From: a virus
Taxonomy: Duplodnaviria; Caudoviricetes
IMG/VR virus record: IMGVR_UViG_3300045391_005020
DNA length: 64,000 nucleotides
Reading direction: 5' to 3' (one strand)
The translations under genes and the position numbers were made by a program. The notes under the pieces are model-generated. The model was not told the origin of the DNA. It did not search any database and worked only from the letters and a program-made list of their open reading frames with translations. Numbering within the stretch: position 1 is the first letter of the stretch; the number at the start of each line of letters is the position of its first letter. Positions 30,378-45,163 of the stretch are shown here, in pieces.

Positions 30378-33300
30378 TCAAGCCGCTTTGTTCATCTCGC
30401 TCGGGAGTTCCTGATCGAGCTCGCCCAACCGTTTCCTGAACACCTCGACGTCGATCTTGATCGACTTGTCGGTGCCCGGGATCTTGTTGAGGTCGACCAT
30501 GCAGAGCTGCAGGATTTGCTTCATCTCGCGGACGAACTCGGCCTTCACCTCGATGATGAAAGCGTCGTGGACCGGGATGCAGACCTTGAATCCGATCTGA
30601 CGGCCGATGTCGGTGCCGTAGCGGAATCGGTACAGGTTGATGCCTGCGACGGCCAGCATGTCGGCGACGCAGCCCTGAATCGGGCTATTGGCCGCTTCGC
30701 GCCGGACCGCGGCCTTGCCGCGATCGTCCATGTCTTCCACGCCCGGGAACCAGCGACGGCGCCCGAACGGAGTTTCGACGTAGCCGTTGTTCTCGGCCGA
30801 CTCCATGTTGGCCTGGATCCAAGCCCAGGCTTTACGGTACGAGCCAGCGAACGAATCGATGATCTCTTGGCAGTCTTCCTTGGTGACGCCCGGAACTTCC
30901 TTGCCGATCTCACGTGCCAACGCGGCGGCGCCGCGGCCATACATGAGTCCAAACACCACGGTCTTGGCCGCGGTGCGCAGAGCCGTGTACAGCTTCTTGA
31001 CGCGTTCGACCCAGTCTTTGTAGGACTTGTGCCGTTCCTTCGGATCCTGGATGCCCAGGACTCGCTCCAGTTCGGTGACAAATTCCTCTTTCTTGAAGGC
31101 GCGCATTGCCACTTCGGAGTGGAGGTCGCGACCCTCTTCGATGATCTCAGTCAGGATCTTGTCGCCAGACGCGAACGCCAACACGCACAACTCGGCGGTC
31201 TTGAAGTCGACCTCGATGAAGACGTTGCCGGCGTCAGGGACGTAGCACGACTTGAACATCGGGATGTCGAGTCGCTTCTCCTTCGGGATCTTGAGTTCCG
31301 GCGGACACTTCGACTTCGGTGAGTCGTCGGTGCGGTCGCGGTACTCCTTCACCGTCATGGGGCGCTTGGTTGGCAGTCCCTTGGCGTCCTTCTCCTCGAT
31401 CCAATCCATGTTGCGGGCCAGGAAGATCGCGAGAGCCGCGTCTTCCTGTTTCTTCGGATTGGTCTGCAGGTTTGCCTTGGACATGCGGTACCGACCGGTC
31501 GTGCTGGTCTGGTGCAGGTGTCCGCGAACACGCCCATCTCGAACCGAGATGTTGTGGCAAATACTCTTACCGTCCTCGCGTACCCCGAACTCGTTCTGGG
31601 GCACGTCGACCAAGTAGGTCTTGAGGAACTGGCCCAGGATCGACAGCTGCTTGAGCATGGTCAGGGTCCGGATTTCCGGATACCGGTGACTCAACATCTC
31701 GAGCGTCGCGACCTTGGTGGATGGCGAGTTCATCATCTGGGCCCGTATGCACAGCGGCTTTCCGGGTCCGTTCTGTTTCTCGTCTTCCTCCATGATCCTG
31801 GTCCACTCGACCGGATACTTATCCGAGTTGTAGAGCGGCGTCAGATCCAGGACGATGGCGTTTTCAGGCGCCTTCATCTTGTCCTTGTAGATCGCGTTAC
31901 TGAATAGGAAGGCCGCGCGCTGACGGGGCGAACTCGGGTTGAAGTCCGGCCAGTTGGCTTCCTCGCGGAATTCCTTCAGGATCGCGTCATACGTGGGCTG
32001 GTAGATCGAACGCAGCTTGGCGACCCGTTCGAGATCGACCTTCAGACCCTGCCGCTCGACATCGAGTAAGTGCAGGCTGGTCGGCATCACGATGTTCTCG
32101 AACAGATGCTTGAGACGTGCGTTCGCCGGCTTGTCCATTTCAGCCATGAGCTTCATGGCCGCACGGAAGTTGGCGTCGGCGTCGTAGCAGGCGTACAAGA
32201 GCAGGATCGAATGCGGGACATTTCGGTAACCGAATCGCAGATGCTGATTGCGGCCCGAGATGAACTTCGGTTTCGTCGGCGCCAGCGGACGGCCGCCGTC
32301 TGACTCATCGTCAGAGTCGTCCTCGGCGTCTTCCCAGGTGTCCCCGGTAAAGAGGCCGGTGTCGCGCTCATCGCTCACGACCGTGACCTTGGTAGTCCGG
32401 TAGTGCTCGAGTGCATCCTGATACTTCGCCATCTCGGCGTGGTATTGGTTGACCAGCTGGACGTCGGCGTCGTTCACCGGATTCATCTCGTCCGACAACC
32501 AGTCCTCGAGCGGCTTCCAATAAGGCCCGAACTCCGGGCAGTATTTACGGACCAAGTGGTCCAAGCCTTCTGACTCGTCGCCTTCGGAGCCGAACAGCAG
32601 ATGGTTCGCCAACATGGTATCGAAACCAGTCGCCAGCGTCTCGTCGATGTTGATACCTTCTCGCGAGGGCATCTCGATATCGACGCGAAGATGTTGTCCG
32701 ATCAGCTTCACGCCTGCACGCGATTGGATACGCTGCAAGCAGGCGGCGATTCGGGCACGCTCCTCGGGCGAGTGGATGACAGCGCCGCGCTCTCCGCGCA
32801 GCTTCATCACCACCGCCTGACCCTCAGCCCAGCAGCACTGCCAGGTCAGCAGGTAATTGAATTCCTCACGGGCGCAGTCGTTGCCGAATTCTGTGTCGAC
32901 ACACAGATGCGTGACGTTCTTCTCAGCAAGTTCGCGTTCGAAGGCTTCCAGCTGATCGGCGTTCTCGAGCACCCGGTAACCGGGCAACCAGCCGCTGATC
33001 GGGTGCCAAGCGTTCATCAGAACCTGCTGGGCCCTGAACAACTCGGACTTGAAGACCTCGATGCCGCCGGTCGTGCCGGTGAACACCGCCGGCGAGATCG
33101 TCGGGACCACGGGAATTCCTTCCCACGTATGGACGGTGCCGCGGAAATTGTCGAGCTTCGCGTCGTGGCCGAAGAACGCCTTGAGGGCGTCGGCGCCGAA
33201 CGTGATAATCACCTTCGGTTTGCACGCATACGCATCCGCCCGCACATAGGGGGCATTGGCGCGCTTGTGCTGTTCCTTGAAGGTCTTTTCGCCGTCCGGG

Positions 33301-33686
33301 AGCGCGAACCTGATCGCGTGGGTTACCAAGCAGCGAGTCGGTTCGAAACCGGCTTCCTTGAGTTCGCGCCGCAATACCTCACCGCCGCGCGACATCAGAC
33401 AGGTGCCGTACAGGATGTCTTCCTGGGACGGTGCCGGCAGAACCAGCAGGTAGTCGCACGCAGCCCAGCCGAATCCGTGGCCTTCGAGCGTGTCGGGGCG
33501 GCAGACCGGGTGGTGGGTGGGGTTGCCCTGACACTTCACCTCAGGCGGAGTGGTCTGGAAATTTCCAACTTCGAACGCCCACATCTCAGGCGAGACGCCC
33601 GGGTAATTGTGGATCCGGTATTCGTCATGGGTCGGATGCAGCTCCACGAAACCATCGGGAAGCGCACGTAGTTCAGCAACAGTCAT
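30378..33686 (-). CDS. polA: Family A DNA polymerase with N-terminal family-4 UDG-like domain and 3'-5' exonuclease
   Basis: UDG-like PKVIITFG; exo CVDTE, FDTMLA, YACYDA; TTGRY...NLQTNP; DFKTAEL (motif A); RTAAKTVVFGLMYG (motif B); NSPIQG; VHD (motif C). Confidence 0.95.
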   Translation of the reverse strand: MTVAELRALPDGFVELHPTHDEYRIHNYPGVSPEMWAFEVGNFQTTPPEVKCQGNPTHHPVCRPDTLEGHGFGWAACDYLLVLPAPSQEDILYGTCLMSRGGEVLRRELKEAGFEPTRCLVTHAIRFALPDGEKTFKEQHKRANAPYVRADAYACKPKVIITFGADALKAFFGHDAKLDNFRGTVHTWEGIPVVPTISPAVFTGTTGGIEVFKSELFRAQQVLMNAWHPISGWLPGYRVLENADQLEAFERELAEKNVTHLCVDTEFGNDCAREEFNYLLTWQCCWAEGQAVVMKLRGERGAVIHSPEERARIAACLQRIQSRAGVKLIGQHLRVDIEMPSREGINIDETLATGFDTMLANHLLFGSEGDESEGLDHLVRKYCPEFGPYWKPLEDWLSDEMNPVNDADVQLVNQYHAEMAKYQDALEHYRTTKVTVVSDERDTGLFTGDTWEDAEDDSDDESDGGRPLAPTKPKFISGRNQHLRFGYRNVPHSILLLYACYDADANFRAAMKLMAEMDKPANARLKHLFENIVMPTSLHLLDVERQGLKVDLERVAKLRSIYQPTYDAILKEFREEANWPDFNPSSPRQRAAFLFSNAIYKDKMKAPENAIVLDLTPLYNSDKYPVEWTRIMEEDEKQNGPGKPLCIRAQMMNSPSTKVATLEMLSHRYPEIRTLTMLKQLSILGQFLKTYLVDVPQNEFGVREDGKSICHNISVRDGRVRGHLHQTSTTGRYRMSKANLQTNPKKQEDAALAIFLARNMDWIEEKDAKGLPTKRPMTVKEYRDRTDDSPKSKCPPELKIPKEKRLDIPMFKSCYVPDAGNVFIEVDFKTAELCVLAFASGDKILTEIIEEGRDLHSEVAMRAFKKEEFVTELERVLGIQDPKERHKSYKDWVERVKKLYTALRTAAKTVVFGLMYGRGAAALAREIGKEVPGVTKEDCQEIIDSFAGSYRKAWAWIQANMESAENNGYVETPFGRRRWFPGVEDMDDRGKAAVRREAANSPIQGCVADMLAVAGINLYRFRYGTDIGRQIGFKVCIPVHDAFIIEVKAEFVREMKQILQLCMVDLNKIPGTDKSIKIDVEVFRKRLGELDQELPSEMNKAA

Positions 33687-34780
33687 GCTATTCCTCGATG
33701 GGTAAACGGAACCTGGTCCAACAACGCACGCATCCTGATCATGCCCAGGTCGGCGGCGTCCGGGACCGAGATCTTCTTGTTCTTGGGATCGGCGAACTTC
33801 TGGCGCGCGATCGCCAGCACTTCCTCGGGCCACTGCAAGATGTGGGCCGGGACCTTGAGGTATTGGTCGAGCTTCTTTTTCATCTCGAGCGCGAAGACGC
33901 GTTTCCGCTCATCGCGCGGATCTGGGATAGTGGTCTCGGGATCGATCGCGATGATGGCGGTGCGCCATTTCTTCGCGAAGGCAACGCAGCGCTCGTCGTC
34001 CAGGTCCTTGCCGAAAATCGCGATCCCGTTGGGTCCGCACGCGATCGCGTTGGTGATGCCTTCGCAGATAATCGGGATCTGGGATTCGTGGACGTTGTCG
34101 CCGTTGTAAAAGCACTTCCTGAAATGCGGATTGAACATCCACTTCGGCTCGGAGCCGTCGATCGCGCGTCCCTGCCAACCGGCCAACTGGCCGTCGACCA
34201 GGATTGGGAAGATGACGCGGTTCCGGGCCTTCGGGTAGAGTTCGTCGTGCTGTTCGGTAAACAGGGCGCCGTAGACTTTTCCCAGGTACTCCGGCGTCAG
34301 GCCGTTGTACTTGACGTTCAGGAACTGGCAGGCCTTGTGGTCCGCCTGCAACGACTGCAAGGGCACGCAGCCCAGCGGCAACCGCAACGGCGGAATCTCG
34401 ACCTGCGGAGCCAGCTGCGCGAACATCTCTGCGGCTCCGCTCGGAGTCCCGATGTCGTCCAGGAACTGGCGATAGAACTCCTCCCTGTAGACCTGACAAC
34501 CTCTTCCGGTTTCACACCGAATGTTGTGGGTCAGGCGCGGGAACTCTTTCGACGGGATCGTGAGCCACGAGTGGCCGATCCACAGCCGATACTTGGTATC
34601 ACCGCAGAGCGGGCAGCACACGCTGTATTGCTCGCCGCCCTGGTACACATCCAGGTGCCGGCGTCCGAAAGTATCGTACTCGACGCGCCACTTCATGGGC
34701 ACGCCGACACTAGAAATCTTGACCGTCCCGAACCGGCGCTTGAGCGCCGCATAGAGGATCGGATTGAGCGGTTGCGTCAT
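33683..34780 (-). CDS. DNA primase (Zn finger + TOPRIM)
   Basis: CPLCGD, RVIFP...GWQGR, ICEG. Confidence 0.85.
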   Translation of the reverse strand: MTQPLNPILYAALKRRFGTVKISSVGVPMKWRVEYDTFGRRHLDVYQGGEQYSVCCPLCGDTKYRLWIGHSWLTIPSKEFPRLTHNIRCETGRGCQVYREEFYRQFLDDIGTPSGAAEMFAQLAPQVEIPPLRLPLGCVPLQSLQADHKACQFLNVKYNGLTPEYLGKVYGALFTEQHDELYPKARNRVIFPILVDGQLAGWQGRAIDGSEPKWMFNPHFRKCFYNGDNVHESQIPIICEGITNAIACGPNGIAIFGKDLDDERCVAFAKKWRTAIIAIDPETTIPDPRDERKRVFALEMKKKLDQYLKVPAHILQWPEEVLAIARQKFADPKNKKISVPDAADLGMIRMRALLDQVPFTHRGIA

Positions 34781-36255: not shown

Positions 36256-36836
36256 AAGAGTCCGATATGGTCAGCGAAGATCTCGCGGGCGAGCGGATGG
36301 GATGCCAGCTCACGACGAGCACTGTCACGATGACGGTCGAGCACGTCGGGAACCTGGTGCTTGATCGCGATATAGCAGCGGAAGAGAGGGGTGAACGGCG
36401 CCTGTTCATCACGGGCCAGCTCGGCCGGCGTGAAAGCGGCGCAGCGCTCTTGGAAATACTGGATCTGCCATTGGTACCTGTCGAACACGCTGGCCTCGAT
36501 CGAGTCGGAACGTTCCTGAACGGACTCCTCGACCTTGGTGGAGACCAATCCCTGTGGGTACAGTGGTGCGCCGATCCGGACCATCTCCTCGAGGCGCGCG
36601 TGCACGAACGCCTCGGGAGACTCGCCAGAATCGCGGCACATGAATGCGGCGGACAGGTAGTACCGGTCCGCGGACTTGCCTGTGCCGCCGACACGAGCGC
36701 CGGGAGCGCAATAACTTTGGCGTGACTGAATGAACGCAGTCCGGATCGCCGCTGCGAGCTGTTCGACCTCAGGGGTGACAGCGCGGTAACGTCCTTGTGC
36801 GTCCTGCTCAGGAGATTTTTTGGATCTGCCAGCCAT
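36252..36836 (-). CDS. hypothetical protein
   Basis: ORF between two helicases. Confidence 0.7.
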   Translation of the reverse strand: MAGRSKKSPEQDAQGRYRAVTPEVEQLAAAIRTAFIQSRQSYCAPGARVGGTGKSADRYYLSAAFMCRDSGESPEAFVHARLEEMVRIGAPLYPQGLVSTKVEESVQERSDSIEASVFDRYQWQIQYFQERCAAFTPAELARDEQAPFTPLFRCYIAIKHQVPDVLDRHRDSARRELASHPLAREIFADHIGLL

Positions 36837-38262
36837 GCTTCCGGTACACTCTGAGACGATTCTGCGATCTGGACTCCAGGTCGCTCGAGAATCGGTCGAT
36901 GAAATCGATCAGGAGTCCATGCGTCTTCTGCTTCTCGGAACCGAGACGGCTCAGACGCCCAGGAACCTGGGTCGAATGGATTTCCGAGCCCAAGCCGTCG
37001 GCCCGGACCAGGATGTTGAGGTCTTGAAAATTGACGCCCTTCGACCACACGAAGGTGGCTATCACGCGCCTGAGTTTCCCCGACGCGAAGTCCGCCTTGT
37101 ACCGTTTCCGGTCTTTGGTGGTGCACAGCAACTGGCCCGGCAGCAGCGCTCCGTCCTTCTGGAGCTCCTGCGCTCGGTCCGCGTCGATCTCGCCGGTCAC
37201 GACCGTAAACTCCGGCATGAGCTGCTGGAGCCGGTACGCGTGCTCGGCTTTATCGACCATGATCAGGACCTGGGCATCCTCGCCGTACTCGGCCAGGGCC
37301 CGGTGGGTCGCGATCGTGATGAGCTGATTGCGCGCCAGGTTGTTCCAGATGCCGGCCCGATCCTTCAGATCTTTGCGGTCGAGGCCGGTGACGTCCGGGC
37401 CCTTTCGGCACTCGAACGCCCACACCTTGAGGGGAACCACGTTGCCGCTTTGGACCGCTTCATCGTATTCGATTTCCGCGATCTTGGGTCCGAACAGGGC
37501 CTCAATAAAACCATCGCCGTTGTCGGAGCGGCCTTCCGGCGATGCGGTCATGCCCAGGAACTTCGCGCGCCGGAATTGCACCAGCACGTTCCGGAACATC
37601 TCGCTCACCAGGGAATGGCACTCGTCGCCGATCAGGAGCGCGGCGTTCTTGTCGCAGTGCTTGAGCGAGTGGCTGATTGCGACCGTGACCCGTTGCGGGT
37701 TCACTTCGCCGTCACCCACGAACCCGATCTCGGGATCGTACCTGCGCAGGGAATCATAAATCTCGCGGGCCACGTCCTTGGACGGGACCGTGAAGATGAT
37801 CTTGGAATCCGGGTACAGCCGCATGATCTGGTAGAGCAGGAAGGACTTTCCCCATCCGGTCGGGCAATGGATGACCCCGTTCCGGCTTGCCAGCATGTTG
37901 GCCAATACCCCGGCTTGGTTGCCGCGCCATTCGACGTTCTGGACCAGATCGAACCTGGGCTCGGGCAATCCCGATGGCATCAGATCTTCCTCGGTGACAT
38001 CGATGCCGGCGCCCTTGAGCGTATCGGTGATGCGCTGGCCGTAGCCAGACAGGCAGTAGAACACGCGGCGCCCAGTCTTGGGGTGCGTGTCGTACCAATA
38101 GTTCCGCATCTCGTTCGGGACCTGGCGGCGCTGCCACCCGTTGGAGTGGCAGGGCTGCTCGTGTTCCACCAGCGTGACTGTACACGCCTGGTGGAACCGG
38201 GCCCCGAGCTCAGCGGGCTCCAGGGCCATGATGCGTCCAATATAGGACACTACAGCACCCAT
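36808..38262 (-). CDS. SF2 DExH helicase (UvsW-like)
   Basis: PTGWGKS, DECH, GMTASP, KGVN, QVPGRLSR. Confidence 0.9.
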   Translation of the reverse strand: MGAVVSYIGRIMALEPAELGARFHQACTVTLVEHEQPCHSNGWQRRQVPNEMRNYWYDTHPKTGRRVFYCLSGYGQRITDTLKGAGIDVTEEDLMPSGLPEPRFDLVQNVEWRGNQAGVLANMLASRNGVIHCPTGWGKSFLLYQIMRLYPDSKIIFTVPSKDVAREIYDSLRRYDPEIGFVGDGEVNPQRVTVAISHSLKHCDKNAALLIGDECHSLVSEMFRNVLVQFRRAKFLGMTASPEGRSDNGDGFIEALFGPKIAEIEYDEAVQSGNVVPLKVWAFECRKGPDVTGLDRKDLKDRAGIWNNLARNQLITIATHRALAEYGEDAQVLIMVDKAEHAYRLQQLMPEFTVVTGEIDADRAQELQKDGALLPGQLLCTTKDRKRYKADFASGKLRRVIATFVWSKGVNFQDLNILVRADGLGSEIHSTQVPGRLSRLGSEKQKTHGLLIDFIDRFSSDLESRSQNRLRVYRKHGWQIQKIS

Positions 38263-38324
38263 ATGAGCCTCGTGATTTTGGCCGGTAGCATTGCGAGCTA
38301 AATAATTACAGCAATTAACGCTCA

Positions 38325-38344
38325 GTCAATACCATTGTTTTGAG
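38325..38344 (-). promoter_or_regulatory. ACAAT-N4-TTGAC promoter motif copy (replication operon)
   Basis: CTCAAAACAATGGTATTGAC, followed by TG-TAATTAT. Confidence 0.65.
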
Positions 38345-38410: not shown

Positions 38411-38438
38411 GCGGGCCAGGAGTCGCCTCCTGGCCCGC
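38411..38438 (-). terminator. terminator closing the Ubl cassette
   Basis: GCGGGCCAGGAG-N4-CTCCTGGCCCGC. Confidence 0.65.
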
Positions 38439-38469
38439 AGACACGTTCAGCGGCAAACGCCGCTGTCAG

Positions 38470-38988
38470 TTAGTTACCCTTGATCTTGCGGACCAAGTGG
38501 ACGCTGTCGTTGTTCGACAGGATGTGGTCGAGACCGACCACGCGACCGCCGGAGCGGATCTCGAGGCCCGAGATGTCGCCCAAGCCGGCGGTGTCGATGG
38601 CGCAGCGCACGCTGCGGTCGCCGTTCAGGGTGATCTCGGTGATGACGCCCGGGAGCTTGCCGATGCGAACGCGAATGAAGTCGTCGTTCTCTTCGTCGCC
38701 CGCGTCGTCGTCGAGGTCATCGTCGCCGTAGGTGTCGTCGTCGCCGTCGACATCGTCGCTGTAGTCGGGGGCGTTGCCCTTGATCTTGCGGAGCAGGAGC
38801 ACGGTCTGGCCGTCGCTCAAGGTGGTGTCGAGAGTGGCGTCGGCGCCGCTGACGCGGATCTGGTAGCCGTCGGCCACGAGGCCCGCGAGCTCCAGCGCCT
38901 TGCGGACGCTGCGATCGTTAACGAGTCCGACGTCCTGCATCGCGCCGCCGGGAGCAATGCCAACCTTAACAGTGATGGTGACTTCCAT
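38470..38988 (-). CDS. tandem ubiquitin-like (beta-grasp) protein, two units each ending RKIKGN
   Basis: Internal duplication (DRSVR.A...AGL...IR..G.....D..L...D/Q.V.L.RKIKGN) joined by an acidic linker; ThiS/MoaD/Ubl-like pattern; strong RBS. Confidence 0.8.
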   Translation of the reverse strand: MEVTITVKVGIAPGGAMQDVGLVNDRSVRKALELAGLVADGYQIRVSGADATLDTTLSDGQTVLLLRKIKGNAPDYSDDVDGDDDTYGDDDLDDDAGDEENDDFIRVRIGKLPGVITEITLNGDRSVRCAIDTAGLGDISGLEIRSGGRVVGLDHILSNNDSVHLVRKIKGN

Positions 38989-39071
38989 GGTATATACCTT
39001 TCAGGGGTAGTGAGAATTCAAGTGGTGAAACGAATCAGTGATGAACACAGGGAAACTGGGAAACAGAGAAA

Positions 39072-39764
39072 CTAGATTTCGCCGGCAACCAAATTGAGCG
39101 GTTGCAGGCCGACGATCGTGGAGAGCTCCGGAAGAATCGACCCAGGAGCGGCGTTCTGGTAGCTGAACCAACGGATGAGATGCCAGACCGCGATGCTCGA
39201 GATACAGGCCGCGGTGGCCCCGACCGTAGTAGCGGCGCCACAAGCTGACGTCTCCGCTTCTGCGTCGGTGTAGGTCATGGTGCCTTCCCAATACTGGATC
39301 TGGGAGGGCTCGCAGGGATTGATCGCGTAGATGCGCCCGGAGTCGGCGCCCATCCTGGTTTCCACCATGAGGGCGACGTGGGCCTTGTACTTCAGCGACT
39401 TTTCCCAGATCGCCTTGCGCGATTCCATGGTGTCGGTCAGCAGGAAAACGATGGAGCCGAGCTGTTCGCCACCCAGGACCTTGACCGGGTGCATCGTGAT
39501 GGCGGTACCGGTTTGGCGCTGCACGAATTCCGCAAGCGCCTCGACTTTCAATTTACCGATATCGTCATTGCCGAAGACCTGGTTGGCGATGTTGTGTTCG
39601 GCCACAACATCGTCGTCCCAGACGTGGATGTTCTGGATCCCGAGCTTCGCGAGCTCGAGAACGACTCGACTCCCGGTCGCGCCGGCGCCGATCACATCGA
39701 CGCGACGGTTAGCGAATTGACCGGGATCGAATACTTTCAAGTGTCTGAGTGCGTCAACAGCCAT
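39072..39764 (-). CDS. ThiF/MoeB/E1-like activating enzyme
   Basis: VIGAGATGS, WDDDVV.EHNIANQ, GKLKV, LTDTMESR, candidate catalytic Cys in ETSACG. Confidence 0.9.
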   Translation of the reverse strand: MAVDALRHLKVFDPGQFANRRVDVIGAGATGSRVVLELAKLGIQNIHVWDDDVVAEHNIANQVFGNDDIGKLKVEALAEFVQRQTGTAITMHPVKVLGGEQLGSIVFLLTDTMESRKAIWEKSLKYKAHVALMVETRMGADSGRIYAINPCEPSQIQYWEGTMTYTDAEAETSACGAATTVGATAACISSIAVWHLIRWFSYQNAAPGSILPELSTIVGLQPLNLVAGEI

Positions 39765-39772
39765 GGGAAACC

Positions 39773-40843
39773 TCAGATGTTGGGGAATTCAATGTGTTGT
39801 TCGTCCACAAGAATCGGGGCCGGAACCTCCGGCTGGGTTGCTGGAACTTCTTGAGGGGCGGGCAAGCTCGGGGCCCTGCCGGCCTTTACTTCGTCGATGT
39901 GACGGATGATCTCGGTGGCTTCATTGGCCGCGTTCTGTTTGCGGGCCAAAGCTTCGGCGCGGAACAATTTGCGCAGACGCTTGGCCTCGCGACGTTCCTC
40001 GCGGGTCTTGTACTTGAAGCCATTGGTGCGCGCGAGATGTCCGAAGAACTCGTCTTCGGGAGTCTCGCGCCTGCTGGATCGCATGACTTCATTCGCGAAC
40101 TCGCGATCGGCGGCCGTATCGAAGTCGTCGTCGCGGAAGTCCATGTAGCCGTAGCCGTCTTCGTCCCAGGTGCGGCCAGAGTATGCACCCTGAGCCGGAG
40201 TCTGGTTGTTGTACGGATGCTGATACCCGGAGTGACGTCCCGCGTAGTAGCCGTGACCGTACGGATTCGACGGCGCGGCGTAGGTGATCTTCTTGACCTT
40301 GTCGGCGATCTCCTTCTCCCAATAGGCGCGGCGTCCCGCGTCCAACGGAAGATCGATCGACCACTCGACGTCCCTGATCACCAGCTTGGCGGCAAATAGG
40401 AAGACGTCGAACTTGGCCTCGCGCTTCTTGTTGAAGATGCCGCGGATGAAGAACTCAGCACCGTTCTGCTGAAAGTCCTTCATCTGCGACTCGTCTTGGC
40501 CCGACGGACTCACGCCCATGTTGACGTGGCTGTGGCCCCAGAAGCGGATCCGATTGATGATCTCGTCCGCGTCGGTGCGCTGGCTCAGCTCGTTGTACAG
40601 GACTTCTTGTCCTTCCGGAGTCAGCTCGGTCGTGGTGGAGTGCACCTGCTGGCCCGGCATGAAGATCTCGTCGATCACATAGTCGTTTCCGCGTTGGTAC
40701 ACGGAACCGAGCCAACCGACCTCGTCGCCGACGATGTCGACCAGATGCCACATATCCTCGTAGGCATCCGGGTGGATGAAGATCTTTGGGGTCTCGATCT
40801 TGGGCATCTCGACCACGGTGTTGAATACGTGTGGACTAAACAT
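39773..40843 (-). CDS. JAB/JAMM metalloprotease (DUB-like)
   Basis: E (DEVGW) plus exact HxH-x7-S-x2-D motif (HSHVNMGVSPSGQD). Confidence 0.9.
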   Translation of the reverse strand: MFSPHVFNTVVEMPKIETPKIFIHPDAYEDMWHLVDIVGDEVGWLGSVYQRGNDYVIDEIFMPGQQVHSTTTELTPEGQEVLYNELSQRTDADEIINRIRFWGHSHVNMGVSPSGQDESQMKDFQQNGAEFFIRGIFNKKREAKFDVFLFAAKLVIRDVEWSIDLPLDAGRRAYWEKEIADKVKKITYAAPSNPYGHGYYAGRHSGYQHPYNNQTPAQGAYSGRTWDEDGYGYMDFRDDDFDTAADREFANEVMRSSRRETPEDEFFGHLARTNGFKYKTREERREAKRLRKLFRAEALARKQNAANEATEIIRHIDEVKAGRAPSLPAPQEVPATQPEVPAPILVDEQHIEFPNI

Positions 40844-40857
40844 GGTACCTTTCACCC

Positions 40858-42801
40858 TCAAACGAGGGGACGTCCATTCGCATCGCATTCGCGACCGTCA
40901 GGAGTGAAGTAAGTCACCGTCGGGATGCCGTTCACGTCGTTCGGCGCCTGTGCAGGAGCCGCCGCAGGGCGCAGCTTGATCTTCTCCGCGATCGCTTTCA
41001 TGCGATCACGGTCGGCTTGGATGCGGGCCGCTTCGGCCGCGTCGATCTTGACGTATTCCTCGTCGGTCTTGGCGAGCGGCCAGCGGTCGCACTTGGCGCC
41101 GGCTGGGTCGTCGACATTCACGCTCTGGAGATACCCGATCAGGAAGTCCGCCAGGGAGGCGTACTCGTACATCGCGATGAGCTGCGACACCGTCGATTCC
41201 GCGTTACCCCAGCACGCATGTCCGTCCGCGAAAACGTGCGGAGCATTCATGCCGTTCTGGTAGCCAGGGATCGTTTGGGTCAGATTACGGAACGTGACCG
41301 AGCCGCGGTTCTGATCGATGTCGATCTGCATCTTGCCGAGCTCGTGCCGTTTGTTGGAACGAGGATCGACGAAGAACAGACGCTTGGTCCGGATCGAGAA
41401 GATATTGCCGCGGAACTTGATGCTTTCGATGCTGGAGTTCCTGCACAGGGCATCGAACTCGCCACCATACTTGGTCGCGTCGACCTTGGTAACCGTCAGG
41501 AGCGACTCGTATTGCTTACGAGCCATTTCGAATTGCCGAATCGCATCGGTCAGCTGCTCGCGGCAGGACTTGACCGTGTTCTGGCGATTCTGGAAATTGT
41601 CCTGGTAGTTCTTCTTGGTCGCTTCGATGCGGGACTGACAGACTTCCATGTACTTCGCGCGGTGCTGCTCGAGCGGGGGCTCGACCGGACCGCCGGTGAT
41701 CAACAGATTGATGCCTTCCTCGCAGATCTTCTGCAGGATCTGCAATTCCTCGGTCTGGCCGTAATGGCACAGGTCGGGGTAGATGTACAGGTTGTGAGCA
41801 TCGATCGAGCCGATCTCGTCACCCTCGGTCGTCATGATCGGAATGCCCGTCTGGCTGACCGTGAAGGAGCCGCAGTCGCGGCACGGAAGGCCGATGCCCC
41901 AAGCGCGGTTGTTGCGCATGAAGACGCGATCGGTGTCCCGGTCGGTGTGATGCGGCGACGAACGGACATGCACGGTGAACCCGGTAGTGGCCTGCGGGTT
42001 GGCGCGACCGTGCGGAACACATAGCGTGACATCCATCCCGAGGCGTTCAGCCAGCTGAGTCTGGAGCATGTTGATCCAGCTCTGCTTTGCGTTGGACGCG
42101 CCGTCCCATTGGGCGACGCGAACCGTCGGAGGCGGGGGCAGCTCGGATTCGAGCGGACCCTGAGCAGGTATGATCGGAGCCACCAACGATGCCGCAGCCA
42201 CGCCCGCGATCGCAGTCGCGAAGATGGTGTCGAAGAAGTTGGTTTCGGCCGGCACGGCAGGAGCTTCGGCAGCCGGAGCCGCCGGAGCAGGCGTGGTGCC
42301 AGTAGACACCAATTCCGCGTGCAGGATGCCTTCGAACGGCGACGCGCGGTGACGGACAACCTGAAAACCATTACTGGTCAGCAGGGTCATACCGGCTTCG
42401 TCGATCAAGTTCACGCTGTTGCGACCGAACATCTCGGTCGCGTGGATGACGATGCCGAGGCGGTCCAGGGTATCCCGGGGAACCGTCTCGACGTTGACTC
42501 CGTACATGGTTGCCGTTTCTTCCGGCATAGTGTGGTCCTCTAGGTATTGACGTGCGAAAGAGTGACTGTCGTCGACAGCCATGAGACGAATCGGATGTGG
42601 TCCCGGTGTGACGAAGTACTGCCGAGGCATAATGAGCCGTCGCTGCAGTTCTTCCCATTGCGCCATGACCCGCGACTCGACCTCCAACATATTGACACTT
42701 TGGATGAGTGGTCGCGGGGCATCGTTCGTGATCAGCATCGCGTTCATGTCCGCCTCCATGGCGGCCCAATCGATCGTGATTTGTGGTCTACGAATTTGCA
42801 T
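40858..42801 (-). CDS. coiled-coil protein with C-terminal E2/UBC-like domain
   Basis: APHVFADGHACWGN matches the (H/P)H/N..x-G-x-x-C E2 active-site loop; preceding coiled coil; possible second start with GAGGA RBS at 42528. Confidence 0.65.
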   Translation of the reverse strand: MQIRRPQITIDWAAMEADMNAMLITNDAPRPLIQSVNMLEVESRVMAQWEELQRRLIMPRQYFVTPGPHPIRLMAVDDSHSFARQYLEDHTMPEETATMYGVNVETVPRDTLDRLGIVIHATEMFGRNSVNLIDEAGMTLLTSNGFQVVRHRASPFEGILHAELVSTGTTPAPAAPAAEAPAVPAETNFFDTIFATAIAGVAAASLVAPIIPAQGPLESELPPPPTVRVAQWDGASNAKQSWINMLQTQLAERLGMDVTLCVPHGRANPQATTGFTVHVRSSPHHTDRDTDRVFMRNNRAWGIGLPCRDCGSFTVSQTGIPIMTTEGDEIGSIDAHNLYIYPDLCHYGQTEELQILQKICEEGINLLITGGPVEPPLEQHRAKYMEVCQSRIEATKKNYQDNFQNRQNTVKSCREQLTDAIRQFEMARKQYESLLTVTKVDATKYGGEFDALCRNSSIESIKFRGNIFSIRTKRLFFVDPRSNKRHELGKMQIDIDQNRGSVTFRNLTQTIPGYQNGMNAPHVFADGHACWGNAESTVSQLIAMYEYASLADFLIGYLQSVNVDDPAGAKCDRWPLAKTDEEYVKIDAAEAARIQADRDRMKAIAEKIKLRPAAAPAQAPNDVNGIPTVTYFTPDGRECDANGRPLV

Positions 42802-42802
42802 G

Positions 42803-45163
42803 TCAGACCGTCACGACGTGATCAAGGAAACTCATCAGAGATTCCTCATGGGTGACGACGAGAATCTGTCGGCCAGAGTGCTGGGACATTTCCTTCAGTT
42901 TCAGGAGCAAGGTTTGCAGGTGCTGGATGTTGTCCTTGTCGAGGTACGTCGATGGCTCGTCGAACACCAACAGGCCCACGGAGCGGGCGAAGGTGTCGGA
43001 CATGGCCAGACGAAAACTCGCCGAGGCGACGATCTTTTGTCCACCCGACAAACGGGCAGCGTCGATCTCCATCCCGTCTTCGAACCTGACCCGGAACGAC
43101 ATGTCGTCCGCGAGCCACATCCGGAACGGAGCTTCCCAGACCGTGAGGTAGTGCTCGATCCTTATATTCAGGATACGAGCATACTCGCGCATCATGAGCG
43201 CTGGCAGATTGGTGACGTGCAGGACGTCACGGACTTTGCGAACTTCTGAAACCCAGGACGCGTCCTTGGCTTCGCGATTGAGCTGCTCACGCAGATGCGT
43301 GACCTGTGCGGTCCGCTGTTCGGCGCATGCCTTCGCGATCCCGAAGTTCTGACCCAGCTCCGCCAACGCGGTGCGGGCCAACCCGAGCGCGACGGCTTGC
43401 TGTTTTGCGGTCTCGAGGTCTTGCTGACTCGGCATCGCAATCGTGTCTCCGAGCTGCGATCGCAGAGTAAGTGCATTCGTACAAGCCGCAGTTGCCGCCT
43501 GGCGTTGCTGTCCGAGCAAGCGCCACTGGTAGTCGGCCTGACGATGCGACTCGATGAGCTGCTGGTATTGCCCCAGGAAATCCCGGAGCGCCGCCAACGG
43601 TGCTTCATCGGGTTTCTGCTGGGGAGCGCCCTGGAGTTGCGCGGCCAAAAGGTCGCGCTTCCGCAGAGCATCGTTGAACGCCGTGATCTTGGCGGTCATC
43701 TCGGCGAGTTCTTGCTGCGCGCCCTGGAGGCGGCTACGGCGAACGTCGAGTTCGACTTTCACCACGTCGCGGGCCATCTGTTCCAGTTTGGCCAGTTCGG
43801 CGTCGATTTGGGTGATCCTTCCGCCGATCCGATCGGACAACTGTTTGAAGTCCGTTTTGATTTTCTCTTCTTCAAGAGAGATCGCTTTCCTGAGGTTCGA
43901 GCACTCGTTCTGAAGATCAGGAACGTGCGCAGCGAAAGCCTGATTGCAGGTCGGACACTGGCCCTTCTCGGCAGCCAGCAGGTGGTTGGTGGCGCGTTGG
44001 TATTCCATCTCGAGCCGCACCAACTCCGGAGACTTCATCTTCTCGATCGCGATCGCCTGCTTGAACTCGGCCAGGAGACTCGCCTTCTCATCCTTGAGTG
44101 TCTGTTCGACCGGAAGAGACGGCAGTGGAGCGCGGCCATCGACGATGGCTTTCATGGAATCGTGCTGAACCTGGAACTCGACAACCGCTTGGCGCAGGCG
44201 CGCAAGTGTGCTCTCGTCTCCAGGTTGATTGAGTTCTTGCAGTGCCTTCTGGGCGGCGGCGAGTTCGTTCCGCAGATGCTCGGCCTGTCCGTACTGGCTG
44301 ACCGCTTGTTCGATCTGCTGGATCTGCGACTGAGCCGCTTCTGCTTGCGGTTTCATTGTCTCGAGCGCCTTCAGGATCCGCTTCAGCTCCTCGGCCGCCT
44401 TGTCTCCTTCCGGAGACAGCCGCTGAACTTCCGCGATGGCCTCTTCGACCAGCCGATCGGCATGCTGGATCGCCGCGGCGGTCCTTGTGGCCTCGAGGGC
44501 CTGCTGGATCACCTTCTCGGCCGGCTCGAGCTGCGCGATCTCGGCCTTGCGGGCCGTGATCTGCTGGTCGAGCGTGTCGAGTTCCTGCTGGCTCGTCAGA
44601 ACCAACTGGGTTGCGGTCTGGAGCTGTTCATCGAGACCTGTGGTGACCTGGTAAGCATTCGCTTCCTGGGTCAGCCACTTGTGGGCCTCTGCGGCCTGAT
44701 TGAGCCCGAAGGTCTGTTGGAACTCCTTCAGGCGGTCAGACGCACGGGCGTACAGGATCGAGTCGATCTTGCCCTGCGGGATGAAGACGTTGTCGAGCAG
44801 AGTGTCCATGTTGGCGCCCAAGAGGCGCACTAGGAACTCCTCGACCTCGGCCTGTTTGGAAATCGTGGTCTCGTCGAACTTGAGCGAGACCTTCGACGAT
44901 TCGATCGCGCGCCGGATCGTGTACTCGGTGTCGCCGGCCTCGAAGGTCAGCTCCACGTACCCTTTTTCGGCGCCGTGCTTCAGGTTGTCCGTCTTGGTGC
45001 CCGGGTTGATCGACTCGCCCGTGATGGCGAATCGCATCGCATCCAGGAGGTTCGACTTGCCGCGCCCGTTCGTACCCAGGATGCCGTTCAGACCGGCCCT
45101 GAATTCGACGTCGAGCGTGCTATGCTGACACCAATTGCGAAGGCGCACGGTTGTGATGTGCAT
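42803..45163 (-). CDS. sbcC: SbcC/Rad50-like ATPase (gp46-like)
   Basis: GTNGRGKS, IPQG Q-loop, CPTC hook, LSGG, FDEP, VTH. Confidence 0.95.
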   Translation of the reverse strand: MHITTVRLRNWCQHSTLDVEFRAGLNGILGTNGRGKSNLLDAMRFAITGESINPGTKTDNLKHGAEKGYVELTFEAGDTEYTIRRAIESSKVSLKFDETTISKQAEVEEFLVRLLGANMDTLLDNVFIPQGKIDSILYARASDRLKEFQQTFGLNQAAEAHKWLTQEANAYQVTTGLDEQLQTATQLVLTSQQELDTLDQQITARKAEIAQLEPAEKVIQQALEATRTAAAIQHADRLVEEAIAEVQRLSPEGDKAAEELKRILKALETMKPQAEAAQSQIQQIEQAVSQYGQAEHLRNELAAAQKALQELNQPGDESTLARLRQAVVEFQVQHDSMKAIVDGRAPLPSLPVEQTLKDEKASLLAEFKQAIAIEKMKSPELVRLEMEYQRATNHLLAAEKGQCPTCNQAFAAHVPDLQNECSNLRKAISLEEEKIKTDFKQLSDRIGGRITQIDAELAKLEQMARDVVKVELDVRRSRLQGAQQELAEMTAKITAFNDALRKRDLLAAQLQGAPQQKPDEAPLAALRDFLGQYQQLIESHRQADYQWRLLGQQRQAATAACTNALTLRSQLGDTIAMPSQQDLETAKQQAVALGLARTALAELGQNFGIAKACAEQRTAQVTHLREQLNREAKDASWVSEVRKVRDVLHVTNLPALMMREYARILNIRIEHYLTVWEAPFRMWLADDMSFRVRFEDGMEIDAARLSGGQKIVASASFRLAMSDTFARSVGLLVFDEPSTYLDKDNIQHLQTLLLKLKEMSQHSGRQILVVTHEESLMSFLDHVVTV

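Follow-up and report, generated by a model that had tools for sequence, protein, structure and literature searches.

The subject of this analysis is a cassette of four genes in a 64,000-nucleotide stretch of the IMG/VR virus record IMGVR_UViG_3300045391_005020 (Caudoviricetes), hereafter called the window. A preliminary description, made from the letters alone, had proposed that four co-oriented, closely spaced genes encode a complete pathway for the conjugation of a ubiquitin-like protein (Ubl), and all elements of this arrangement of open reading frames (ORFs) are confirmed on the minus strand, between positions 38470 and 42801, with a double hairpin at the end. In the order of transcription the genes encode an E2-like protein (40858-42801, 647 aa), a JAB peptidase (39773-40888, 371 aa), an E1 enzyme (39072-39764, 230 aa) and a di-Ubl precursor (38470-38988, 172 aa). 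The linkage of these four gene families is far beyond chance, and it appears reasonably probable that the cassette is a functional, phage-run cascade of Ubl protein conjugation, expressed together with DNA-metabolism genes. The features of the locus are as follows.

40858-42801, minus strand: E2-like protein, 647 aa, with a lineage-specific N-terminal region (residues 1-215) and the family core (residues 215-600)
42747-42801, minus strand: ambiguous start of the E2-like gene; the form in the public collection has 629 aa and begins at M19 (42747)
41692-42123, minus strand: alpha/beta domain (residues ~227-370), conserved in the E2-like family and confidently modelled
41494-41673, minus strand: long single helix or coiled coil of ~60 residues (~377-436; DSSP helix at model positions 163-222) that joins two domains
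41071-41484, minus strand: UBC/E2-like domain (residues ~440-577), from the predicted structure
41203-41244, minus strand: active-site loop APHVFADGHACWGN as predicted from conservation and the model, residues 520-533, containing His522 and the candidate catalytic Cys530
39773-40843, minus strand: JAMM/JAB metallopeptidase, 356 aa from M16 (40843, the database form); the ORF can be extended to 40888 (371 aa)
40493-40534, minus strand: JAMM zinc-site motif H119-S-H121-VNMGVSP-S129-GQ-D132, with the partner Glu56 at 40721-40723
39072-39764, minus strand: E1-like adenylyltransferase of minimal size (230 aa), made of one ThiF-type domain and lacking rhodanese, ubiquitin-fold (UFD) or separate Cys domains
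39237-39248, minus strand: SACG motif with Cys175, candidate site of the E1~Ubl thioester by conservation
38470-38988, minus strand: tandem (di-) Ubl precursor, 172 aa, comprising unit 1 (residues 1-72), an acidic linker (73-103) and unit 2 (104-172)
38773-38787, minus strand: KIKGN ending Ubl unit 1, with predicted JAB cleavage after Gly71
38473-38487, minus strand: KIKGN ending Ubl unit 2, with predicted JAB cleavage after Gly171 and removal of the terminal Asn
38411-38466, minus strand: two GC-rich hairpins abutting the stop codon of the Ubl gene
42803-45163: SbcC gene, upstream neighbour of the cassette
36808-38262: helicase gene, downstream neighbour of the cassette, with primase-like and PolA-UDG genes beyond it

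The annotation of the flanks agrees with the earlier placement of the cassette between SbcC and the helicase-primase-polymerase genes. The terminator that had been assigned to its end stands as a structure, namely a double hairpin of -43.5 kcal/mol (z -6.67) whose stability was equalled in 0 of 200 shuffled sequences, but not as a canonical signal: a U-tract is absent, for which reason a consensus terminator scan does not call the site. The hairpins are probably a transcript end or a stabiliser. Between them and the helicase gene lies a promoter-like site (38302-38329, minus strand) composed of TTGACT, a 16-nt spacer and TG-AATTAT, and the downstream replisome genes may therefore have their own transcription unit. 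The viral nature of the window is evident from a large terminase subunit, in addition to SbcCD, RuvB, ligase and PolA, and its relation to cultured phages is only remote. Its Ubl and JAB proteins are also found on a 214,858-bp contig in a public collection, and the source is therefore probably a jumbo phage.

Sequence families and predicted folds of the four proteins

From the letters alone the four products had been read as a tandem beta-grasp protein, a JAMM peptidase with an exact E...HxH-x7-S-x2-D motif, a ThiF/E1 enzyme with GxGxxG and a candidate Cys in SACG, and a coiled-coil protein with an E2-like active-site loop; the family comparisons uphold each of these assignments. The Ubl precursor contains two beta-grasp units, and the profile of a single unit matches SAMP2 (E 5e-5), PF1061 (1.8e-4) and ThiS in the PDB. 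Searches of Pfam, PHROGs, PADLOC and NCBIfam with the window protein itself gave nothing usable; among 32 family members, 11 match ThiS of Pfam and 8 match Ub-Mut7C, with Ub-RnfH and SAMP2 also matched by individual members. Relatives have one to three units arranged head to tail and joined exactly at a K-G-N motif, in which the Gly is invariant and the Lys and Asn are at least 90% conserved. The last unit ends in [KRVA]-G-[N/A] in 103 of the 112 unique Ubls of the family (56 stop there and 36 have 1-3 extra residues); the residue directly after the Gly is Asn in 89 of the 112, 50 of them ending on it, and Ala in 14. The linker of the window protein (38680-38772, minus strand, residues 73-103) is made up almost entirely of Asp, Glu and Gly and is absent in the relatives, whose units abut; after cleavage it would be released or stay on the N-terminus of unit 2.

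The catalytic core of the peptidase spans residues ~30-205 and is followed by a low-complexity tail that is both Tyr/Gly-rich and basic; the alternative start 15 codons upstream (40843-40888) would overlap the end of the E2-like gene. We found 250 relatives, and in an alignment of 48 relatives E56, H119-S-H121, S129 and D132, i.e. the pattern E...HSH-x7-S-x2-D, are invariant. There is no match in Pfam, and the similarity to curated models is weak (PADLOC JAB, E 0.005), with the family profile aligning Rpn11 over the JAMM core at E 0.19-0.46.

The E1 matches the ThiF model of Pfam with 65.5 bits against a cutoff of 28.1 (5.4e-18) and carries the motif G26-x-G28-x-x-G31. Its single domain keeps intact nucleotide- and Mg-binding residues; R7, G26, G28, D50, N58, N61, Q62, K73, D111, R137 and C175 are invariant in the E1 alignment (A5), and Cys175 is present in all 71 unique relatives. 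The family profile matches Uba1, Uba5, ThiF, MoeB, MccB, Cap2 and BubCD. In a complex prediction for the E1 dimer with the core of the E2-like protein the score was 0.19 against a mark of 0.32, which speaks neither for nor against binding. Related phage E1s bear the label "thiamine biosynthesis protein" in GenBank. Among them are small E1s of the cultured Xanthomonas phage PhiXhv-12 (locus L001, 2316-6566) and Flavobacterium phage FpV4 (locus L002, 2557-6718), both flanked by large unannotated ORFs and, in PhiXhv-12, also by ORFs of 70 and 243 aa. None of these neighbours is matched by the hidden Markov models (HMMs) of the cassette's JAB, Ubl and E2-like families, and the two loci may represent a variant that has diverged further, or else another system built on an E1.

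With the 647-aa protein as the query, a word-indexed protein search returned only the query itself, and the family emerged through exhaustive HMMER searches (E<=1e-3), which collected 1815 cluster representatives with a shared core corresponding to residues ~225-580. H522, C530, G532 and P575 are invariant among 68 family members and again in a 67-row alignment of the domain; P521 and G527 of the loop APHVFADGHACWGN are at least 90% conserved, and H-x6-9-C-x-G is kept in 120 of the 159 unique E2-like ORFs. Pfam, PHROGs, PADLOC and NCBIfam yielded nothing usable for this protein, and when the family was compared with PDB sequences, by phmmer and by profile, only coiled-coil noise was returned. 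A hydrophobic stretch (residues 188-213), checked as a membrane segment, is not conserved in the closest relative.

The AlphaFold2 model of residues 215-600 (mean predicted local distance difference test, pLDDT, 93) consists of the alpha/beta domain, a 60-residue helix and the C-terminal domain. Modelled separately, residues 435-585 (pLDDT 94.9, predicted template-modelling score 0.87) form a domain whose sheet has six strands, against the four of the UBC fold. The preliminary description had made its reading depend on a UBC fold at the C-terminus of this protein, and such a fold was found: in a structure search against 48,161 PDB representatives all 48 chains with Z of at least 5 are E2, UEV, RWD or related UBC-superfold domains, headed by E2S (Z 7.3, root-mean-square deviation 4.5 over 121 aa) and UbcH10 (Z 7.2, 4.0 over 117 aa), with alignments spanning the whole E2 chain. 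The best 50 rows of a Foldseek search comprise 49 E2 enzymes and one ribosome-bound chain (E 0.015-0.09), and the nearest named prokaryotic family in the ESM Atlas is Prok-E2_D, with a template-modelling (TM) score of 0.51. In the model the loop from His522 to Cys530 lies between the beta-sheet and helix 2, and judging from the aligned ranges His-x7-Cys would be roughly collinear with the HPN...Cys of E2s. The alpha/beta domain, a candidate target- or partner-binding module, gave no usable match in the Atlas (TM<0.45). Because the scores are modest and there is no sequence link to E2 models, we call the 647-aa protein UBC-like, by modelled fold and active-site geometry, and place it outside the curated E2 families. 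Some viral loci encode giant proteins of 1305-1690 aa that contain the E2-like domain (L064:3597-7514, L077:8074-12036 and L086:828-5900), which suggests a transfer enzyme fused to large extra modules.

Linkage and distribution of the cassette

To survey the neighbourhoods of related genes, loci were chosen by a relative of the JAB or of the E1 alone; a scan of IMG/VR with the JAB alignment yielded 80 viral loci, and the set comprises 87 loci in total. All four families are present at strict thresholds in 51 of the 87, and the E2-like family in 58. Nearly all loci without a strict E2-like match have, directly upstream of the JAB gene, an ORF of ~430 aa that matches the E2 domain weakly and keeps H-x7-C-G-G, and local HMM searches show the E1 and Ubl genes adjoining that of the JAB in almost all viral loci. 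Three gene orders are seen, namely E2-JAB-E1-Ubl, Ubl-E2-JAB-E1 and Ubl-E1-JAB-E2. In an all-against-all clustering of 53 non-redundant loci only these four families are common to nearly all; the next commonest neighbours are DnaB (19 loci), the AAA_24 ATPase (12) and PolA (11), with SbcCD also present, and the remaining neighbours that match Pfam are mostly DNA-metabolism genes. The four genes are thus linked far beyond chance, and the neighbour data indicate that the position within a replication module recurs and that the cassette is a self-contained unit.

Two further statements of the preliminary description hold in the wider sample. Genes for sulfur transfer (rhodanese, desulfurase, ThiG/H, MoaE) are absent from the window, and none was found among 79 neighbouring genes of related loci. 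That the virus owns the pathway is supported by the frequency of the cassette in viral contigs and by the deep branches of the E1 tree, which are mostly viral. Neither blastn with the cassette nor tblastn with the E2-like protein gave a match in 50,697 GenBank phage records; the JAB family has a single match there, in the uncultured faecal phage MT835544.1, and no cultured model phage with this exact cassette was found among these records.

The scan used for IMG/VR, applied to cellular genomes with one genome per prokaryotic species, gave 57 loci in metagenome-assembled genomes (MAGs), 42 of them with all four families. Most belong to Candidatus Obscuribacterales/Melainabacteria, where the contigs reach 7 Mb in length, and further loci were found in Saccharibacteria and Paceibacterota. 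A small number come from MAGs of gut or sediment taxa; the E1s of these copies fall within viral clades, and they may be prophages or binning errors. In 26 melainabacterial loci (L096-L138) we found a six-gene array, surrounded by ordinary cellular genes, that encodes a Ubl, an E2-like protein of ~650 aa, a second E2-like protein of ~300 aa, a long JAB, an E1 and a ClpA/B/C-type double AAA+ ATPase (e.g. L101:2426-10057, L119:2530-10133 and L106:2497-10249). The ATPase matches AAA_2 (1e-62 to 1e-72), AAA_lid_9 and ClpB_D2-small of Pfam, and neither the 87 phage loci nor the window contain an ATPase of this type. The array suggests a coupling of Ubl tagging to an unfoldase. The shorter E2-like paralogue lacks H...C-x-G and always stands beside a Cys-bearing one (e.g. 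L096:3766-4899, L106:4862-5746 and L114:4937-5848), a pairing reminiscent of UEV/Mms2 with Ubc13.

The melainabacterial copies are united in a single supported clade (99/95) of the E1 tree, nested in a larger supported group (99/87) to which the window also belongs, with a 207-kb phage contig as its sister, as do other viral and candidate phyla radiation copies. Most of the deeper clades are purely viral. As the tree has a midpoint root only, no direction of transfer is drawn from it.

Proposed mechanism and alternative explanations

The residues that a conjugation cascade calls for are present and conserved, and it is from them that we infer every chemical step. The JAMM peptidase would cut the di-Ubl after the Gly of each K-G-N/A motif, separating the units and removing the Asn cap; such a cut would be required, as tandem precursors have the motif in their interior and single ones have it capped. 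The minimal E1, which like ThiF and MoeB is probably homodimeric, would then adenylate the exposed Gly carboxylate and load the Ubl onto its Cys175 as a thioester, from which it would pass to Cys530 in the UBC-like domain of the E2-like protein. In the absence of an E3, the choice of the target is assigned to the additional parts of this protein: its alpha/beta domain, coiled coil and variable N-terminus would pick the target, to a lysine of which the Ubl would be attached, so that the protein would act as an E2/E3 hybrid, as proposed for the E2s of the bacterial Bil systems. It is also possible that the JAB takes the mark off again. Proteins of the host or of the phage itself would be the targets, and the recurrent siting beside replication and recombination genes suggests action in early or middle infection. 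The roles named in the preliminary description, namely replisome regulation, action against host defences or a decoy, are conjectural. One elaboration, which we regard as possible but doubtful, is that the cascade is an offensive tool, in which the E2-like protein would mark specific proteins of the host, or replisome proteins of the phage, early or midway through infection and the tag might pass them to an unfoldase or protease; the idea of such a hand-over comes by analogy from the cassette of Melainabacteria, whose operon includes a ClpA/B/C-type AAA+ unfoldase.

Several points weigh against a conjugation cascade. The E2 assignment is one of fold, and its scores (Z 7.3, Foldseek E ~0.02) are within the range of common structural arrangements; none of the 68 members of the family matches the UQ_con or Prok-E2_A-E models at E<=0.1, and none matches an E2 model of Pfam or NCBIfam. 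The active-site motif is PHV, with the His 8 residues before the Cys, whereas the canonical HPN-x7-C has 10. Beyond the JAMM motif the peptidase resembles known JAB proteins only weakly in sequence. The carrier phage is uncultured, and the thioesters, the cleavage site, the conjugates and the targets are all deduced.

The modest fold scores also bear on the possibility that the E1 alone delivers the Ubl, as in SAMP- or Urm1-like conjugation, with the 647-aa protein serving as a non-catalytic UBC/RWD adaptor or substrate whose His and Cys bind metal or have a structural role. Inactive RWD and UEV domains are among the structural matches, a sequence-level E2 match is absent, the Ubl profile is nearest to SAMP2, of a pathway that needs no E2, and a Cys-less second E2-like paralogue exists in the melainabacterial operons. 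However, all of 68 diverse members retain H522 and C530, H-x6-9-C-x-G persists in 120 of 159 ORFs, the two residues are at the position expected of an E2 active site, and the Cys-less paralogues always accompany a Cys-bearing one, as a UEV accompanies Ubc13; we therefore hold conjugation without an E2 to be quite unlikely. A use of the same chemistry as defence cargo, i.e. Bil-like tagging of structural proteins of competing phages or mobile elements for superinfection exclusion, is also unlikely in our judgement. The prokaryotic Ubl-E1-E2-JAB operons that have been studied by experiment (Bil, type II CBASS) are all reported to act against phages (PMC11601596; bioRxiv 10.1101/2023.09.04.556158), and both the occurrence of the cassette in cellular genomes and its patchy spread among phages would suit such a role, but its place is within replication modules, rather than in moron or lysogeny regions, of large phages that appear to be lytic, the deep diversity of its E1 is mostly viral, and no defence-island regulators such as CapW or CapH/CapP were seen among its neighbours.

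Two other explanations would leave protein conjugation aside. In one of them the Ubl is a sulfur carrier, trimmed by the JAB (as with CysO/Mec+ or QbsE/QbsD), adenylated and thiocarboxylated, the sulfur being destined for modification of phage nucleic acid or a cofactor. Its attractions are a Ubl of the ThiS/MoaD/SAMP class, an E1 of the size of ThiF or MoeB, the established part that JAB proteins play in maturing sulfur carriers (Iyer et al. 2006, PMC1779556) and the "thiamine" label of related phage E1s in GenBank. It is nevertheless very unlikely, given that no rhodanese, cysteine desulfurase, ThiG/H, MoaE or other acceptor is encoded in the window or near more than 50 related cassettes, that the E1 stays far under the ThiF/MoeB equivalog cutoffs (e.g. 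TIGR02356, 47.7 versus 275 bits) and that there would be no place for the fourth protein, which is UBC-like, strictly linked and endowed with an invariant Cys. Extremely unlikely, finally, is a role of the terminal Asn as the reactive residue in E1 chemistry like that of MccB (via a succinimide or phosphoramidate) or, alternatively, attachment of the Ubl to a non-protein acceptor. Asn follows Gly in 89 of the 112 Ubls, with 50 ending on it, and the best PDB matches of the E1 include MccB, an enzyme that acts on a C-terminal Asn; yet that match covers only the generic nucleotide-binding part and is no better than those to Uba1, Uba5 and ThiF, Ala replaces Asn in 14 Ubls and 1-3 residues follow in 36, the motif is internal in tandem units, so that a protease step is required, and the invariant residue is the Gly, not the Asn. 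Phage-run conjugation of the Ubl to proteins thus is the explanation that we favour.

Relation to known systems

The most similar system in its working is Bil, a bacterial anti-phage defence that consists of the BilA Ubl, BilB E2, BilC JAB and BilD E1 and corresponds to the type 6D operon (Iyer et al. 2006, PMC1779556). Like the cassette, it has four separate genes in one operon, Cys chemistry and no E3, and its E2 is thought to select the target. BilD, however, is a large E1 with inactive and active adenylation domains and a mobile Cys domain (PMC11601596), an architecture that the cassette lacks, as its E1 is a single 230-aa domain with the Cys in its core. The E2-like protein belongs to a larger, new family, with alpha/beta, coiled-coil and UBC-like parts and no match in Pfam, PADLOC or NCBIfam, and the Ubl differs in being SAMP2/ThiS-like, Asn-capped and often tandem; the carrier is a phage and not a defence island.

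The Bub systems (type 6E; BubAB/BubCD/BubE) contain Ubl-E2, JAB-E1 or E2-E1 fusions and a DUF6527 serine protease; they have no catalytic Cys and act via oxyester (Ser) intermediates (Ye et al. 2024, PMC11601596). They share with the cassette multi-domain Ubls, a precursor processed by the JAB and a small E1, but the four genes of the cassette are unfused, and its E1 and E2-like protein keep an invariant Cys; no DUF6527 was found in the flanks of the window or among the neighbours of related loci. The archaeal SAMP/UbaA/JAMM system resembles the cassette in a Ubl to which our profile is closest (SAMP2), a minimal ThiF-like E1 and a JAMM protease acting on the Ubl, whereas SAMPylation proceeds without an E2, from dispersed genes and with Gly-Gly ends, in contrast to the linked E2-like protein and the K-G-N/A tail of the cassette. 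With type II CBASS, a signalling system against phages that is based on cyclic oligonucleotides, and its Cap2/Cap3 pair the cassette has in common prokaryotic E1/E2/JAB chemistry, and its E1 profile matches Cap2 and the E1-E2 models of PADLOC. Cap2, though, is an E1-E2 fusion that conjugates the CD-NTase, with no free Ubl, while the E1 and the E2-like protein of the cassette are separate, and no CD-NTase or effector was found in the flanks of the window. The likeness to Cap2/Cap3, which the preliminary description had invoked, is only generic.

Eukaryotic polyubiquitin precursors offer a parallel in that their head-to-tail units are released by a protease and the last one bears a one-residue cap. 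The yeast UBI4 polyubiquitin precursor also ends in Asn. The sequences are unrelated, however, and the Gly-Gly of ubiquitin contrasts with the single Gly of the cassette, whose units are diverged and separated by an acidic linker.

Among other candidates, the PRTRC cassette (NCBIfam TIGR03735-03742) was rejected, as PRTRC_ThiF scores 42.1 bits against a cutoff of 144.75 and the other three proteins match no PRTRC model. A ThiF/MoeB pathway was set aside too, there being no linked sulfur genes and an E1 under the equivalog cutoffs, and the cassette does not conform to any of the five operon types that Iyer et al. 2006 distinguish. The cassette is thus not a member of Bil, Bub, CBASS or PRTRC. 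Its chemistry is familiar, and what differs is the carrier, the minimal E1, the architecture of the E2-like protein, the capped poly-Ubl and the breadth of distribution. A search of the literature, covering journals outside subscription, brought up no account of such a cassette in phages, which is not proof of novelty; an Aravind-lab survey of jumbo phages and a 2026 jumbo-phage review mention no Ubl system.

Current work on prokaryotic Ubl conjugation treats it as a weapon that bacteria turn on phages (Bil, type II CBASS and probably Bub), and a complete, distinct cascade common in phages would show viruses using the same chemistry themselves. This raises the questions of what phages tag and why, whether for host takeover, control of their own replication or counter-defence. 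If the cascade were an offensive tool, it would amount to a virus-operated pathway of the ubiquitin-proteasome type inside bacteria. Of wider interest are the minimal 230-aa E1 and the new E2 architecture, which possibly merges the roles of E2 and E3, and natural poly-Ubl precursors with a one-residue cap bear on the evolution of ubiquitin systems. The Clp-linked branch in Melainabacteria is a hint that bacteria may direct unfolding or degradation by a tag other than that of the Pup system.

Elsewhere in the window, a protein of 1151 aa (30378-33833, minus strand) has an N-terminal domain of the uracil-DNA-glycosylase superfamily (1.2e-8) joined to a DNA polymerase domain of family A (3.8e-50).

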